Virus record (IMG/VR): IMGVR_UViG_2563366829_000009
Location: 1 to 5,018 of that record
Length of the DNA stretch: 5,018 bases
Origin: a virus
Taxonomy: Duplodnaviria > Heunggongvirae > Uroviricota > Caudoviricetes
Strand: one strand, 5' to 3'
In this document: positions 1 to 5,018 of the stretch, piece by piece
Layout of the letters: the number at the start of each line of letters is the position of its first letter
How positions within the stretch are numbered: the first letter of the stretch is position 1
Position numbers and translations under genes: made by a program
Notes under the pieces: generated by a model
Database searches by the model: none
Told to the model about the DNA's origin: nothing
What the model saw: the letters and a program-made list of their open reading frames with translations, nothing else

Positions 1-202
1 CGATAAAGCGTGACTACATCAGTGTCATGCCCAAACCAGACGGGTTAACGGCAGCAAAGAACCTTGCAGAGGCGTTCGAGCATTATAACGAATGGCATCC
101 GCATAGTGCACTGGGTTATCGCTCGCCACGGGAATATCTACGGCAGCAAGCCAGTAATGGGTTAAGTGATAACAGGTGTCTGGAAATATAGGGGCAAATC
201 CA
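1..202 (+). mobile_element. IS2-like insertion sequence, right end (partial; element continues beyond window start)
   Basis: Frame-3 translation of 3-191 gives a DDE-transposase C-terminus (...[36 protein letters not shown]) that I recognise as IS2 OrfB. The sequence after the stop (GGGGCAAATCCA, ending at 202) matches my memory of the IS2 right terminus. The minus-strand reading frame of the neighbouring gene changes character exactly at 202/203. The target-site duplication cannot be checked because the left end is outside the window. Confidence 0.78.
3..191 (+). CDS. insD: IS2-family transposase OrfB (InsD-like), C-terminal 62 codons, 5'-partial
   Basis: Open frame from the window edge to TAG at 189-191. 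The translation [62 protein letters not shown] is a typical IS3-family/IS2 transposase C-terminal tail. Confidence 0.75.
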
Positions 203-433
203 GCCGATAAGAATTGATGCTGCTGGTTTGTAAAAGAGAAGGCCGCAAAGAAAGCTGAGCATCGACAGGAGCACCCGGCGACGGATGGGGTACTCTACTG
301 CAGAGGTAACAAAAATTACCACCCCAGCCAAAGCCCCTAAAGCAACCTCCGGAGGGACACCTGCAATAACTGCAGCAAGAGAACCAAAACTAAGCAACTG
401 ATTTAATTGCTCATTTGTTACTTGAGCAGACAT
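203..433 (-). pseudogene. Small hydrophobic membrane protein gene (holin-like or lysogenic-conversion-like), N-terminal 77 codons native, truncated and fused into IS2
   Basis: ATG at 433-431 is preceded by AGGAGA (rc of 438-443) at 5-nt spacing. Residues 1-77 (MSAQVTNEQLNQLLSFGSLAAVIAGVPPEVALGALAGVVIFVTSAVEYPIRRRVLLSMLSFLCGLLFYKPAASILIG) contain two or three hydrophobic helices. Codon 78 onward (WICPYISRH..., down to 116) lies inside the IS2 terminus, so the 105-aa ORF in the track is a fusion artefact. The original C-terminus is lost or displaced. Confidence 0.55.
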
Positions 434-714
434 ACTTTCTCCTGTTTACTATCTATAAGCCAGTCAATTATTGATGACTAAACCCGCATAGCAAACCATA
501 TATGAATCATTATTGTTCCATATCATATATCTCAATAAAAGTACTAATGATTTTACAGAACGAGCCAGCAGAGTGGGGGCAGTTGTACAGGAACCATAGA
601 CTTAATTTTGTATTTAATAATGCTATGGTGTAATAAACCTGAACATGTATTTAAAATACGTACTGATTCATGATAGAATTCAAAGATAACTTTTCACCAA
701 CTCCGTTTTTGATA

Positions 715-741
715 CCCGCAATATTTTGCGGGCTTTTTTTT
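715..741 (+). terminator. Intrinsic terminator-like hairpin (CCCGCAA-TATT-TTGCGGG) followed by a T8 run, oriented for plus-strand transcription; may act bidirectionally
   Basis: 7-bp GC-rich stem 715-721/726-732 with a 4-nt loop, then T734-T741. The T-run overlaps the tailspike stop codon (rc of 740-742 = TAA). On the minus strand the hairpin is followed only by UAUCAAAAAC, so termination of the tailspike transcript here would be weak. Confidence 0.55.
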
Positions 742-3700
742 AACGTTCTTCCAGAGACTGAACCCGCTCTTTTATCTTATCCATTTCTCTGCGCTGCCAT
801 GCTGCCTCGATATAGAATAAGAGATCAGGTCTGACCCCCCATCTAGATCCTGCTGGCGTTATTTCAACGCGCTCAATGATGTCTTCTATTACCATCACTG
901 GATTATCATCATCATCAACAATGATGCTCCCGTCATTATCAGTCAGCGGCATTTCCCTTTGGCCAGTAATGACGTCATCATATACTGCGGGATAATCGTC
1001 ATAGCAAAGAAAGGCATAGCGGCATGTTGTGCTTTCTTCTTCCATGAGTCCGTGAGAAATAAGAACATCACGAAGTTGCTGCGCGATTACACCATGATGT
1101 ATCCTCGCCCCTTCTTCCCCCTTTATAGCGACAGCGTTCAGCCATTTATAAGCGATATACCTGACGTCACCCCAGGCATCCAGCAATGCTTCGTCAGGAG
1201 AGACCGGCTCTGTCTTTAATGTTCCGTCACTGGTAACCACAGGATTGGAGCCAAGATAAACTGTCGAGAACCTGTTTCCCGGACCACCAAGAGCATTTAC
1301 ATTATCAAGATAAGGTTTAACATCTCCGTTCTCAAAAAGATGTTCGAGTGCGTTATATACCGCGCGACGTGGAGTACTGCTTCCGGAACCATGCAACGTT
1401 ATCATTGCACCATCTGCTGAAGACGTTGTTTCACCGCCGCTAACGATTAATCTCTGAGCGGTAACATCATCAGACGGTACTTTCTTCGCAATAATGGCGT
1501 AATTACCCTCAAGTTTGACTTCCGCGCGAACTTGTCCTGATGTACCTGCATGGACAGTCAGTGACTGGACGGCAACATCATCTGTGAAATCAACGGGTAC
1601 AGGAACCGTCCTCACGCCTGACGTCGACATAAAAGTAGGAAGCGTTCTGTTAGGAGTGGCTCCGTAGACAAAATCCCTTGAAACAAATTCTTCCTGTTTA
1701 ATTTTCACCCTGAAACAATACAAATCAGCCGGGTGACCATCGTGAACATAAGGATATTTTCTGTTGTTATCCCCTATGCTCCATGGGTTTAGAAAGTCTT
1801 CCCCACCGAAAATGTAGTACAGCCAGTTGTCTTTGATACAAACTGAACCAACACCAACCGCAGAGTTAACTATTCCGCCCTGATAAATCTGATCAGTAAC
1901 ATTAACCCACTCTACATTATCCAGACTCCACTCATTGACGTTAACTCTGGTCATAAATGTTCTTGGATAATTTCCTGCATAACGGTTATCAGGTTCTCCT
2001 CCTTCCCACTCACCAAATGCGCGCTCACTGCCAAAAATAATCAGCTCATCGCCAACTTTGGCAAAAGGAAGGTTTGAGTGATGAACATTATTTGGGAAGC
2101 GAAGAGAATTCCATGATGTACCTAAATCAGAGCTTCTGTGCAATGAACTACCGGGTTGAGTACTTAATGTCCCCCTGGTCGTCAGATACAGAATGCCATC
2201 ATAATATTTTACACATGGCTCAGATGCATTCGCCTCATATTCTACAGGTATGCGTCTGCGAACAAAGCTACCAGGAGAACCGAAAGCATCAGAGAAATAG
2301 AGTATCCCAAGCTCGCGTGGACCAATATCACCATTATGGTAGCCAACAGCAAAACTGTTATCGCTAATCGTCGCAAAACTGTGAATCTCAGTAACAGGAG
2401 TGCTTCCGTCAACAAAAGAAGGAATAGTTCCAAGACTGGTTTTTCTCCATGGTGACGAGTGAAATGATGTGCCAAAACTCCAGTATCTACCCTCGTTATT
2501 CTGATCCACATCCTGGGTATTTTGCGTCGTAACTGTAAAGGTATTTTTATCAATAACAGTAGTCACCGTCATATTCCCGGTAACACCTGTAACACCAGAG
2601 TTTGAGAAGTTGACAAAATCACCAGCAAATAATCCGTGATCAGTAATGCGAATATAAGCGACTTGCTGATTTGCTGCTTTCGTTATACCACCATAAACGC
2701 GAAGGCTGCGACTCATTGGGCGATCCCACAACTCTGCAACCTGCAGTTTATTTCCTCTCACGGTCCGCGTCTCAATTACAGCAAAAAGGCGATTTCTGAC
2801 AACCCCCATACTCATGCAGTGATAGTTAACTGTGGGATAGTTTTCATGTAAATCTGTAAGCCATTCCGGCGTTGTCCAGGTCTTCCCGTCATCTCCTGAG
2901 CGAACCCATGCAACATGGAGGTTATTTACACCATGGCGGTCTCCAGCCATAAAAGGCGCATAGATGACATTGTCATATACAAACGTTTTATCCTGCGTCC
3001 AGGCGTTGTACCACGGTGTATCTGTAATTTTAAATAACTCTCCCTGGATAAAATCTTCAGAAGCATAAAAAAGAGGCTGGCCCGGTATTCTCTCAAATAA
3101 AAAACGAGCATTTTTAAATCGACTGACATCCGGAAGAGTTGATACTTTAAAAGTAAGCCCTAATCCGTCAATTTTATAACCTGGAGATGAGGCTTCAAGG
3201 CACGCGCTTATTGCAGTGGAATCGTCATTTATACCATCACCAACAGCTCCAAAATCTTTGGGGCTAATAGCATCACGCATTTTATCCTGGAACGTTCGGT
3301 ACACAGCCCCAGAACCATACTGAATAAACCAACCAAAACCACCAACAACTCCGGCGATTGCAGCATCGACATAATTACGCATTGAGCGATTATTTACAGC
3401 GTCCTGCTCAAATGATGGATCTGCAAGGTTAGAAATTTTGTTTTGCTTTGCATCGTAATATTTTGCAAGCAAAGATGGTTTCATCAATGCACGTCTGAAC
3501 CACCCAAAACATTGCTGGATCAGCATCGTCAGGTAGTCAAAGGCATCTTCATGCACTTCGGGGAAAAATTTTCCCTGATTGCGAAGGTCTGTGTCCTGCA
3601 CTACATCAAGCACACGATCTATCGTAATTCGCCATCCAGTAGCAAGCGGAGACGGAAGAACCACAGAACCGCCACTATAAGTGCCCGCCCCAGTTACCGT

Positions 3701-3859
3701 ATAACCGGTATCCAGGACCAATTCTGTTACGTTCCCGTTCAGGTCAGACACCTGAACAACCAGGTCTGATTTTCTGAAAATTCGAAAAGTATACGGAAAC
3801 GATGTCGTAACGCCGTTACCGGTGTATTCGTTGTGGTCAACTTCGGTTGAGACCGTCAT
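740..3859 (-). CDS. Phage tailspike protein, endosialidase-like (endo-N-acetylneuraminidase family candidate) with conserved N-terminal virion-anchor domain and C-terminal intramolecular chaperone domain
   Basis: Intact 1039-codon ORF. ATG at 3859-3857 with GGAGA (rc of 3866-3870) 7 nt upstream. N-terminus MTVSTEVDHNEYTGNGVTTSFPYTFRIF is a conserved tailspike particle-binding module, recalled as epsilon15-like. Two Asp-box (S-x-D-x-G-x-T/S-W) motifs: SGDDGKTW (aa 321-328, nt 2876-2899) and SSDLGTSW (aa 576-583, nt 2111-2134). The blocks VNYHCMSMGV, ITKAANQ and KYYDGILYLTTRGT resemble endosialidases of K1 coliphages as I recall them. C-terminal 162 aa carry the Ser-Lys dyad spacing (S877...K882) and ARIHHGVIAQQ typical of self-cleaving chaperone domains. 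Confidence 0.8.
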   Translation of the reverse strand: MTVSTEVDHNEYTGNGVTTSFPYTFRIFRKSDLVVQVSDLNGNVTELVLDTGYTVTGAGTYSGGSVVLPSPLATGWRITIDRVLDVVQDTDLRNQGKFFPEVHEDAFDYLTMLIQQCFGWFRRALMKPSLLAKYYDAKQNKISNLADPSFEQDAVNNRSMRNYVDAAIAGVVGGFGWFIQYGSGAVYRTFQDKMRDAISPKDFGAVGDGINDDSTAISACLEASSPGYKIDGLGLTFKVSTLPDVSRFKNARFLFERIPGQPLFYASEDFIQGELFKITDTPWYNAWTQDKTFVYDNVIYAPFMAGDRHGVNNLHVAWVRSGDDGKTWTTPEWLTDLHENYPTVNYHCMSMGVVRNRLFAVIETRTVRGNKLQVAELWDRPMSRSLRVYGGITKAANQQVAYIRITDHGLFAGDFVNFSNSGVTGVTGNMTVTTVIDKNTFTVTTQNTQDVDQNNEGRYWSFGTSFHSSPWRKTSLGTIPSFVDGSTPVTEIHSFATISDNSFAVGYHNGDIGPRELGILYFSDAFGSPGSFVRRRIPVEYEANASEPCVKYYDGILYLTTRGTLSTQPGSSLHRSSDLGTSWNSLRFPNNVHHSNLPFAKVGDELIIFGSERAFGEWEGGEPDNRYAGNYPRTFMTRVNVNEWSLDNVEWVNVTDQIYQGGIVNSAVGVGSVCIKDNWLYYIFGGEDFLNPWSIGDNNRKYPYVHDGHPADLYCFRVKIKQEEFVSRDFVYGATPNRTLPTFMSTSGVRTVPVPVDFTDDVAVQSLTVHAGTSGQVRAEVKLEGNYAIIAKKVPSDDVTAQRLIVSGGETTSSADGAMITLHGSGSSTPRRAVYNALEHLFENGDVKPYLDNVNALGGPGNRFSTVYLGSNPVVTSDGTLKTEPVSPDEALLDAWGDVRYIAYKWLNAVAIKGEEGARIHHGVIAQQLRDVLISHGLMEEESTTCRYAFLCYDDYPAVYDDVITGQREMPLTDNDGSIIVDDDDNPVMVIEDIIERVEITPAGSRWGVRPDLLFYIEAAWQRREMDKIKERVQSLEER
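743..1231 (-). other. C-terminal intramolecular chaperone / autoproteolytic domain (peptidase S74-like) of the tailspike; predicted self-cleavage between Ser877 and Asp878
   Basis: Sequence ...GSNPVVTS|DGTLKTEP... with Ser877 (codon 1229-1231) and Lys882 (codon 1214-1216) five residues apart, followed by DAWGDVRYIAYKWLNAVAIKGEEGARIHHGVIAQQLRDV. This matches the established Ser/Lys dyad architecture of the C-terminal chaperone domains of endosialidases and related tail fibres. Confidence 0.65.
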
Positions 3860-4054
3860 GTTAAATCTCCAGATAGTCGCAGCACCCGTTGCGCCGCATA
3901 TCTGGTTATTCTATTACCTGAAAAACCATATATGGATAAAAAGACTATAAATACCAATAGATATTACCTTTCGGGTAATTTGCAAAACGTGCTGGATAGC
4001 AAACAAATTATTTGTTACTGTATAAACATACAGTTATTGCATGGAGAAGATAAG
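3860..4054. promoter_or_regulatory. AT-rich divergent intergenic region between the tailspike gene (minus) and the small ORF (plus); contains a palindrome and candidate promoter elements
   Basis: 195 bp between two divergent start codons, each with a good RBS. Contains palindrome ATTACC-TTTCG-GGTAAT (3963-3979) immediately followed by the self-complementary hexamer TTGCAA (3980-3985), and TATAAA at 4021-4026 preceded by TG at 4019-4020. No hexamer pair with canonical 17-bp spacing was found, so the promoter assignment is tentative. Confidence 0.4.
3963..3979. repeat. Palindrome ATTACC-N5-GGTAAT (candidate operator or small hairpin), copy A
   Basis: Perfect 6-bp arms with a 5-nt spacer. The same half-site recurs at 3914-3919, 4321-4326 (within an inverted GGTAATTGCAAA motif) and as TTTACC-N5-GGTAAA at 4343-4359. 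Confidence 0.45.
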
Positions 4055-4312
4055 ATGCAGCAGTATCACTATCCACTGGAAGACGGATTTACCGAAAGGA
4101 TTCACACGCCGGGAGGCGTCAGGTCACTGGTGGAGGGATCGCACTTGATGAAATTACTCCGGGATCTCGATAAGGATGGATTTAATGTCGATGGCCCACT
4201 TGCCGAACTGACTGCACTGATTAACTACGTCACCAGCTCACAGATGTCTATGCAGGATCTGCAAACACATCTCGACTATTGTGCCGAACAATTACGAAAA
4301 CAAACCAGATAA
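4055..4312 (+). CDS. Hypothetical small acidic protein (85 aa), function unknown
   Basis: ATG at 4055 preceded by GGAG (4043-4046) at 8-nt spacing; stop TAA at 4310-4312. The ORF track start at 3932 adds 41 low-complexity codons from the AT-rich promoter region with no RBS, so the shorter start is preferred. Product MQQYHYPLEDGFTERIHTPGGVRSLVEGSHLMKLLRDLDKDGFNVDGPLAELTALINYVTSSQMSMQDLQTHLDYCAEQLRKQTR has about 14 D/E against 8 K/R and no hydrophobic segment; I do not recognise a family. Confidence 0.5.
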   Translation: MQQYHYPLEDGFTERIHTPGGVRSLVEGSHLMKLLRDLDKDGFNVDGPLAELTALINYVTSSQMSMQDLQTHLDYCAEQLRKQTR

Positions 4313-4330
4313 GGTTTGCAATTACCAAAT

Positions 4331-4374
4331 GGAGTGCTTATATTTACCTTTGCGGTAAATTTACATCGCACTCC
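4331..4374. repeat. Nested inverted repeat: GGAGTGC (4331-4337) / GCACTCC (4368-4374) enclosing palindrome TTTACC-TTTGC-GGTAAA (4343-4359), copy C of the ATTACC/GGTAAT-type motif
   Basis: Read directly from the sequence; lies 19-60 nt downstream of the small-ORF stop codon. Confidence 0.45.
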
Positions 4375-4385
4375 TCTTGTGCCAT

Positions 4386-4437
4386 AGTAATCGGGCACTG
4401 GCAAAATCCAGTGCCGGGATTGGTCTCCCGGATTACT
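4386..4437 (+). other. Compound stem-loop / imperfect long palindrome (candidate structured RNA element or protein-binding site)
   Basis: AGTAATC (4386-4392) pairs with GATTACT (4431-4437). Inside it is a perfect 8-bp hairpin GGCACTGG-CAAAAT-CCAGTGCC (4394-4415) and a second short hairpin GGGA-TTGGTC-TCCC (4416-4429). Confidence 0.35.
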
Positions 4438-4452
4438 ACAGAGGCACATATG

Positions 4453-4471
4453 CCGCATAAGCGGTTTTTTT
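4453..4471 (+). terminator. Weak intrinsic-terminator candidate (CCGC-ATAA-GCGG followed by T7) downstream of the small ORF
   Basis: 4-bp GC stem 4453-4456/4461-4464 followed by T4465-T4471. The stem is short, so confidence is low; it may act together with the upstream compound hairpin. Confidence 0.3.
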
Positions 4472-4566
4472 ATGTGTAAAGCGCACCTATTCTATGGTGG
4501 GCTGTGTGGGGGCACCGAAAGGTGCGCCGGGTTCCTTTGTAGCCGGTAAGACCAACTCTGCACAGT

Positions 4567-4599
4567 TCACCACCATCTGATTGGTCTCAGCGGTGGTGA
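4567..4599. repeat. Inverted repeat TCACCACC-N17-GGTGGTGA upstream of the antirepressor start (candidate operator)
   Basis: 8-bp perfect arms at 4567-4574 and 4592-4599. A second overlapping inverted repeat AGACCAA (4549-4555) / TTGGTCT (4581-4587) is also present. Located 27-60 nt upstream of ATG 4626. Confidence 0.4.
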
Positions 4600-4625
4600 T
4601 TAACCTAACTACAAAGGTGATCGCT

Positions 4626-4793
4626 ATGAATACCAAACCTTCCATCTTTTCCTTTGAGTCATCCTGCCAGATCCGTATGTTCATGATTGACGGAGAACCT
4701 TGGTTTGTCACCAAAGATGTGTGCAATGCTTTGAATATTGATGTTACACAAGCGAGAAAACTTGATAAAAAAGGCTGGAACAAAAAGGGGCTG
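4626..4793 (+). pseudogene. Bro-N-domain phage antirepressor-like gene, N-terminal 56 codons only; truncated by IS3-family insertion
   Basis: ATG 4626 preceded by AAGGTG (4614-4619) at 6-nt spacing. Translation MNTKPSIFSFESSCQIRMFMIDGEPWFVTKDVCNALNIDVTQARKLDKK... fits the Bro-N / antirepressor N-terminal pattern (F-x-F...IR...DGEPWF-x-x-KDV...L). The frame runs straight into the IS terminus TGAACCGCCCC at 4794, whose first three bases supply the stop codon. Confidence 0.6.
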
Positions 4794-5018
4794 TGAACCG
4801 CCCCGGGTTTCCTGGAGAGTGTTTTATCTGTGAACTCAGGCTGCCAGATCATCGTTTCCGATGGAAGCATAATAAGCTTTTTCTGCTTCTGCCGGAGGAG
4901 TATGGCCCAGCCTTTCCAGCAATCGTCGATTGTTATACCAGTCCACCCACGTGAGTGTGGCCAGTTCCACTTCTGCACGGTTTTTCCAGCTCTTACGGTG
5001 TATTACCTCCGCTTTGTA
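4794..5018 (-). mobile_element. IS3-family insertion sequence (IS629/IS3411-like), terminal inverted repeat and 3' end of transposase; element continues beyond window end
   Basis: Terminus TGAACCGCCCCGGGTTTCCTGGAGAG at 4794 is a characteristic IS3-family end (TG...CA). The minus-strand frame 5018-4836 encodes a DDE-transposase C-terminus. The target-site duplication cannot be checked within the window. Confidence 0.75.
4836..5018 (-). CDS. IS3-family transposase OrfB, C-terminal 60 codons, 5'-partial
   Basis: Reverse-complement translation YKAEVIHRKSWKNRAEVELATLTWVDWYNNRRLLERLGHTPPAEAEKAYYASIGNDDLAA* is in frame with the window edge; stop TGA is rc of 4836-4838. It is absent from the ORF track only because it has no in-window start codon. 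Confidence 0.8.
   Translation of the reverse strand, partial: YKAEVIHRKSWKNRAEVELATLTWVDWYNNRRLLERLGHTPPAEAEKAYYASIGNDDLAA

Follow-up and report, generated by a model that had tools for sequence, protein, structure and literature searches.

A prophage endosialidase tailspike with a predicted self-releasing C-terminal chaperone of the S74 family

The window, by which we mean the whole 5,018-nucleotide stretch of DNA that was analysed, encodes on its minus strand an intact protein of 1039 residues that is very probably an endosialidase tailspike degrading the K1 capsule (polysialic acid) and belonging to a temperate phage of the epsilon15-like (Uetakevirus) type. With the same high confidence, which attaches to this explanation taken as a whole, the last 163 residues of the protein (S877–R1039) are predicted to be an S74 intramolecular chaperone that releases itself from the spike after the trimer has folded. 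The prediction rests on the register of a Ser–Lys dyad, Ser877 and Lys882, with the corresponding residues of the phage K1F endosialidase, on the retention of the accessory residues of the K1F mechanism, and on the conservation of these positions in distant viral relatives. The tailspike is a typical representative of a family that has been characterised well, and the finding is correct but ordinary and already known: the mechanism was worked out in phage K1F, and the domains that make up ORF7, the corresponding protein of phage vB_EcoP_ZX5, have been published.

Identity and domain architecture of the tailspike

The translation of the tailspike frame, taken from the list of open reading frames, is 100% identical to RefSeq WP_000218905.1. 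With ORF7 of the temperate Escherichia phage vB_EcoP_ZX5 (Uetakevirus; QTH80017.1) it shares 99.5% identity, all 1039 residues being aligned, and none of the five substitutions between the two falls at the cleavage site. PHROG 1171, a family of tail spike proteins, matches over the full length of the protein (E 0). NCBIfam profiles gave no match to the tailspike or to the small neighbouring ORFs, their matches being confined to two IS transposase fragments. A plus-strand ORF at 959–1219 and other short ORFs lying within the tailspike gene were rejected as spurious, as the minus frame is fully accounted for by homology. The coordinates of the gene, its domains, the residues discussed below and the flanking elements are collected in Table 1.

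Table 1. Features of the window, with conservation counted over 55 aligned chaperone-region sequences
Feature	Coordinates	Strand	Description and evidence	Conservation
IS2 end	1–202		Splits holin gene (203–433, minus strand)	
GC-rich hairpin	715–732	.	Directly past tailspike stop codon; T-run on plus strand only (terminator scan, sequence)	
Complete endosialidase tailspike gene	740–3859	-	1039 codons plus TAA stop at 740–742	
N-terminal virion-attachment (adapter) module, aa 1–204	3248–3859	-	PHROG and PDB matches	
Mature endosialidase body, aa 205–876 (predicted boundary)	1232–3247	-	Pfam and PDB matches	
C-terminal intramolecular chaperone domain (peptidase S74), aa 877–1039, 163 aa, about 18.6 kDa	743–1231	-	PF13884, 3GW6	
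Asp852 codon	1304–1306	-	Aligned with K1F D886 and T5 pb1 D1239; putative sensor-arginine partner (PMC4690869)	54/55
Arg863 codon	1271–1273	-	Aligned with K1F R897; putative oxyanion-stabilising neighbour-chain Arg (PMC8326128, PMC3742443, PMC4690869)	54/55
Thr876 codon	1232–1234	-	Aligned with K1F T910 (PMC3828593, PMC4690869)	54/55
Ser877 codon AGT	1229–1231	-	Predicted nucleophile; aligned with K1F S911; PF13884 position 1	54/55
Asp878			Asp or Asn at this position	55/55 (Asp 50/55)
Lys882 codon AAG	1214–1216	-	Predicted general base; aligned with K1F K916	55/55
Gly923 codon	1091–1093	-	Within ARIHHGVIAQQ; aligned with K1F G956	55/55
IS3-family element end	4793–5018		Cuts BRO-N anti-repressor gene	

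The N-terminal module is common to many unrelated families of tail fibres and tailspikes. PHROG families 5662, 1640 and others match residues 1–166 or 1–204 of the tailspike only, the Dpo31/Dpo36 tailspikes of the PDB match residues 1–209 (E 3e-35), and identity to the N-termini of the CUS-3 and K1F proteins is only 18–21%. The body that follows has the parts specific to bacteriophage endosialidases (endo-N-acetylneuraminidase, GH58), namely an N-terminal extension, a six-bladed β-propeller with an inserted β-barrel, and a β-helical stalk that ends at Thr876. These parts correspond to the Pfam families End_N_terminal (PF12218, residues 205–271), End_beta_propel (PF12217, residues 272–721, E 1.7e-232, 771 bits), End_beta_barrel (PF12195, residues 383–465, inserted within the propeller) and End_tail_spike (PF12219, residues 722–876), all of which score far above their cut-offs. 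The mature K1F structures 1V0E and 3GVL match residues 205–876 (E 0), their chains stopping at the residue (T910) that aligns with Thr876, and PDB entry 4HIZ also matches the tailspike (E 9e-271). In the full-length alignment, K1F residues E581, R596 and R647, reportedly assigned to the active site of that enzyme (endoNF) in its 2005 structure paper, fall opposite E547, R562 and R613. The S74 domain forms the extreme C-terminus: it begins at residue 877, directly behind the last residue of End_tail_spike (876), and the ORF closes at residue 1039. The published description of ZX5 lists for ORF7 a T7-like N-terminus, an endosialidase and an “intramolecular chaperone of endosialidase” (PMC9782041).

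Register of the predicted cleavage site

Nucleotides 1231 to 1214, read on the minus strand, are AGT GAC GGA ACA TTA AAG and encode S-D-G-T-L-K. The preliminary description had singled out this motif at 1214–1231 as a predicted self-cleavage site formed by Ser877 and Lys882, placed in front of a 162-residue domain containing ARIHHGVIAQQ, and its coordinates, residue numbers and letters are all correct; Ser877 is followed by 162 residues, and residue 918 is the first of ARIHHGVIAQQ. It had also named the lack of a match to an S74/chaperone profile as one ground for rejecting the proposal. Pfam PF13884 (Peptidase_S74, “chaperone of endosialidase”) matches residues 877–937 with 41.4 bits (E 1.7e-10) against a cut-off of 22 bits; the match takes in positions 1–57 of the 58 in the profile, and position 1 falls on Ser877.

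The alignment with K1F gives the same register. The structure 3GW6, a pre-cleavage K1F fragment carrying S911A, aligns with tailspike residues 757–1038 (E about 1e-94). Opposite Ser877 stands K1F residue 911, which is Ala in the 3GW6 mutant and Ser in the K1F genome sequence, and Lys882 stands opposite K916. In the sequence of K1F gp17, taken from its genome record, S911, K916, R897, D886 and T910 were confirmed to be the residues named in the literature. A full-length alignment pairs these with S877, K882, R863, D852 and T876 of the tailspike, respectively, and pairs G956 with G923 and N912 with D878; the last of these, Asn to Asp, is the sole difference between the two proteins among the mechanism residues. 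With the dyad aligned and R897, D886, T910 and G956 all kept, the earlier assignment of Ser877 and Lys882 as a predicted S74 self-cleavage dyad is supported. Matches to the chaperone region extend to the GA-1 neck appendage chaperone (3GUD) and to the tail-protein chains 9VVR, 7Y5S and 6EU4, and in the distant solved tail proteins 9VVR and 7Y5S an S-D-x3-K sequence lies in register with the site.

The spacing of the two residues is not in itself informative. A bare S-x4-K occurs five times in the tailspike against about 2.35 occurrences expected from composition; being commoner than expected rather than rare, the motif alone carries no weight without the alignment, and motif statistics were for this reason dropped as stand-alone evidence. 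The longer form TS[DN]xxxK is present a single time. What lifts the site above chance is its register, with Ser877 falling both on position 1 of PF13884 and on K1F residue 911.

Relationship to known S74 proteins

Among close relatives, SiaK1 of CUS-3, a P22-like prophage of E. coli K1 RS218, is the one that was mapped residue by residue. The GenBank record of this enzyme carries direct-assay evidence for endo-α-sialidase activity. SiaK1 is 97% identical to the tailspike over residues 205–876 and 92% identical over the chaperone domain, and the sequence flanking the site, VVTSDGTLKTEPV, is identical in the two proteins. Its N-terminal attachment module, in contrast, is unrelated (18.5% identity) and of P22 type, and the final 14 residues of its chaperone domain differ from those of the tailspike here, accounting for 10 of the 13 differences in that domain. 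These differences at the N-terminus and in the last 14 residues indicate recombination joints.

K1F endoNF (gp17), a peptidase S74 in MEROPS and Pfam, shares its architecture with the tailspike from residue 205 to the end, with identities of 65.7% for the catalytic and stalk part and 53% for the chaperone domain. The two proteins differ at Asp878 (Asn912 in K1F), in the chaperone tentacle, which is eight residues longer here, in a seven-residue propeller insertion found here (aa 482–488), and in the N-terminal module. It is from the chaperone-domain identities to K1F and CUS-3 that cleavage of this protein is inferred.

Further afield, the L-shaped tail fibre pb1 of T5, the neck appendage gp12 of Bacillus phage GA-1 (3GUD), the K5 lyases and the eukaryotic MYRF/MrfA have, as here, a Ser where the domain begins and a Lys five residues further on. 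Their cleavage depends on trimerisation and their passenger domains are unrelated; MYRF differs further in having neither the requirement for a stalk arginine nor the long tentacle (PMC8326128, PMC3742443).

Proposed mechanism of chaperone release

In K1F, S911 and K916 form a Ser–Lys dyad, and R897 of the triple β-helix is also required (PMC8326128). As this arginine belongs to the triple β-helix, cleavage takes place only once the trimer is correctly folded (PMC8326128, PMC3742443); the arginine stabilises the oxyanion and acts as a folding sensor (PMC3742443). K916 serves as the general base on the hydroxyl of S911, which attacks the neighbouring peptide bond, and hydrogen bonding of T910 with N912 kinks the chain (PMC3828593). 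N912 and G956 have been reported to be essential for chaperone function, and MYRF has an Asp at the position of N912 (PMC3742443). Asp878 of the tailspike, though a different residue, is most likely equivalent to N912, Asp being the majority residue at this position in the alignment.

By homology with K1F, we propose a model in which the chaperone domains would bring three chains together and nucleate the folding of the β-helical stalk. In the folded stalk, Arg863 of a neighbouring chain, together with Asp852, would be positioned beside the kinked Thr876–Ser877 bond. Lys882 would then deprotonate the hydroxyl of Ser877, allowing it to attack the adjacent peptide bond and free the chaperone, so that the virion would keep a mature and kinetically stable trimer of chains 1–876, each of about 97 kDa, while a fragment of about 18.6 kDa would be set free. 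The preliminary description had called the chaperone disposable. This would hold for the virion only; homology indicates that the spike depends on the domain to fold and to trimerise.

Position of the scissile bond

The cut had been drawn between the Ser and the Asp of the TSD sequence, giving a mature spike of 877 residues and a chaperone encoded by nucleotides 743–1228. A 2007 JBC abstract is said to describe the domain as cleaved off “after” the conserved serine, which would count for that bond. Mass spectrometry of Dictyostelium MrfA points the same way, its C-terminal fragment starting at D768, one residue past the Ser; the same source, however, ascribes this start to exopeptidase trimming and places the K1F cut immediately N-terminal of S911 (PMC3828593). 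In the model of the phi29 appendage the mature protein ends with the Ser (PMC4690869). The phi29 model and the MrfA fragment leave some ambiguity about the exact bond in the S74 literature. In T5 pb1 the scissile bond is named as Thr1263–Ser1264, with the Ser departing with the chaperone as in K1F, and Ser density is absent from both the mature T5 fibre and the K1F spike (PMC4690869). The deposited mature K1F chains stop at T910, and in chemical terms it is natural for a serine hydroxyl to attack the peptide bond that precedes it.

Release by the same dyad through a cut between Ser877 and Asp878, leaving an 877-residue spike and a 162-residue fragment, is therefore unlikely. From the homologous proteins, the cut most likely falls between Thr876 and Ser877, one residue short of where it had been drawn. 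Since the literature places the cut N-terminal of the serine, the likely products are residues 1–876 and 877–1039, which would make the mature spike 876 residues long and assign nucleotides 743–1231 to the chaperone. The computed masses, derived from the 877/162 split by shifting one Ser residue, are about 97.07 kDa for residues 1–876 and about 18.63 kDa for residues 877–1039.

Conservation among viral relatives

IMG/VR was scanned with an alignment of three chaperone domains, yielding 80 loci with 54 distinct sequences that are 36–100% identical. The patterns used in the scan, LDAWGDV and [RH]YI[AM]Y[KQ]W, both lie downstream of the cleavage site, so that the site itself was free of selection by the search. 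Conservation was counted over 55 aligned sequences, namely the 54 relatives and the protein of the window (Table 1). T-S-[D/N]-x3-K is invariant in 54 of the 55, and the three positions between 878 and 882 vary freely. One sequence (L078), with Ala in place of the Ser, was considered as a natural non-cleaving variant and rejected: it has a frame shift just upstream and the segment from the Arg to the Thr-Ser is missing, and either the gene is broken or the assembly is in error. Values of dN/dS for the chaperone domain against close IMG/VR relatives range from 0.4 to 1.4 and are uninformative, with only 1–27 substitutions per pair and, in CUS-3, most of the differences crowded at the recombination joint; the argument from conservation rests instead on relatives of 36–60% identity.

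These relatives bear on whether the site is used at all. No direct evidence was found that the C-terminal domain stays on the mature spike uncleaved, or is removed by a host protease, and all that could be cited for either is the change from K1F Asn912 to Asp878. Such an outcome is very improbable: all residues of the published autocatalytic mechanism are present, homologous domains as far off as those of MYRF and MrfA cleave themselves (PMC8326128, PMC3742443, PMC3828593), and the mechanism residues are conserved down to 36% identity, which would be unexpected were the site unused.

Consequences for annotation and expression

The main value of the analysis lies in correct annotation, that is, in a predicted processed boundary at Thr876 and in the design of S877A and K882A variants for expression work. 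A recombinant enzyme made from this gene is predicted to shed its last 163 residues, and a C-terminal tag would be lost with them. Either substitution, S877A or K882A, would be expected to yield an uncleaved precursor that, by analogy with K1F, should be less stable. Endosialidases are polysialic-acid reagents and candidate anti-K1 agents, and for these uses the processed boundary, probably Thr876, is of practical use.

Prophage context

The tailspike gene lies within an epsilon15-like (Uetakevirus) prophage adjoining yfgI. It is surrounded by genes for holins and an endolysin, by a small hypothetical gene and by BRO-N/anti-repressor genes, in the order of phage vB_EcoP_ZX5; there too, holins and endolysin lie to one side of the tailspike gene, and to its other side lie a small hypothetical protein and an anti-repressor. 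Unlike in ZX5, IS elements have inserted on either side of the prophage copy, in the holin and BRO-N genes, without entering the tailspike ORF. Given these insertions in neighbouring genes, the protein may never be made here.

It is accordingly possible, though in our view doubtful, that the site is intact but idle, the tailspike being a passenger gene in a decaying, IS-ridden prophage of a strain in which no tailspike matures. The holin gene is split by the end of an IS2, the BRO-N anti-repressor gene is cut by that of an IS3-family element, and in E. coli MS 196-1, the closest genome, another IS3-family copy interrupts a large hypothetical-protein gene of the same prophage. The tailspike ORF is nevertheless complete and identical to a RefSeq protein, and it shares 99.5% identity with its counterpart in ZX5, an inducible phage isolated as virions. 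Moreover, the IS insertions are missing at these positions in most other matching genomes and are hence recent. An idle site would in any case bear on expression only and does not conflict with the self-release mechanism proposed for Ser877 and Lys882.

The state of the prophage also allows the notion that the gene has been retained in it for the benefit of the host, for instance through self-trimming of its own K1 capsule or exclusion of other K1 phages, with release at Ser877 as the activation step. This is highly improbable and finds no support in the analysis: the ORF matches that of a functional phage exactly or almost exactly, and the insertions appear to be recent. Over positions 1–4794 the window is 99.96% identical to the chromosome of E. 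coli MS 196-1, and 71 complete E. coli genomes, an O2:K1:H7 strain among them, contain 80% or more of its sequence.

Mosaicism of the tailspike gene

Comparison with the CUS-3 endosialidase revealed that the tailspike gene is a mosaic, with joints within window positions 740-785 and about 3160-3859. DNA similarity to the endosialidase of phage CUS-3 is limited to nt 699-3091 of the tailspike gene, and CUS-3 carries another type of N-terminal attachment module. At the opposite end of the protein, the terminal helix of the chaperone closes with 14 residues unlike those of CUS-3, which places one recombination joint inside the domain predicted to be released at Ser877.

Two insertions distinguish the protein from the K1F endosialidase. 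The first, 7 extra residues (FVDGSTP; aa 482-488, window 2396-2416, - strand), lies in the beta-propeller, while the second, 8 extra residues in the DDNPVMVI region (aa 984-991, window 884-907, - strand), lies in the chaperone, forms part of the segment aligned with the K1F "tentacle" and is also present in CUS-3 and ZX5.

Among the 55 aligned sequences, only the IMG/VR relative L078 carries Ala at the serine column. In L078, the Arg...Thr-Ser segment is absent and the tail-fibre frame shifts immediately upstream of the chaperone domain (about 1380-1560 of that locus). A pseudogene or an assembly error is the probable explanation of L078, rather than a natural non-cleaving variant.

Flanking genes, repeats and insertion sequences

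Features adjoining the tailspike gene
Feature	Window position	Strand	Remark
IS2 3' end	1 to ~202		contains TnpB C-terminus, ORF 27-191 (+)
Phage holin gene remnant	203-433	-	N-terminal part only; adjoins tailspike
Hairpin CCCGCAATATTTTGCGGG and T-run	715-742		T-run follows hairpin on + strand and overlaps tailspike stop codon
Small ORF	3932-4312	+	divergent from tailspike start
BRO-N/anti-repressor gene	within 4581-5018	+	broken at 4793-4794 by IS3-family element end

The orientation of the hairpin at the tailspike stop codon fits a terminator of + strand transcription; on the tailspike strand (-), an A-run precedes the stem and no U-tract follows it. The holin gene is interrupted at about position 202 by the IS2 3' end (window 1-433), and its second half is found past the IS in the closest genome, E. 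coli MS 196-1 (L001).

The small ORF, for which RefSeq gives a hypothetical protein of 85 aa at window 4055-4312, matches PHROG 450, a family of unknown function, and weakly matches the C-terminal portion of an anti-repressor family. Window 4344-4628, which lies upstream of the BRO-N gene and extends into its start, recurs at another site of the prophage as an inverted copy with 81% identity (L001 23959-24244), which has a Rha-family pseudogene and an ORF6N-domain gene in its vicinity. The two copies may represent a regulatory or leader region that is repeated among anti-repressor-type genes.

The IS3-family insertion in the BRO-N gene is not present in MS 196-1; in that genome the same prophage carries an IS of this type at another site (L001 26834-28090), with 99.6% identity over 226 nt to the element end in the window.
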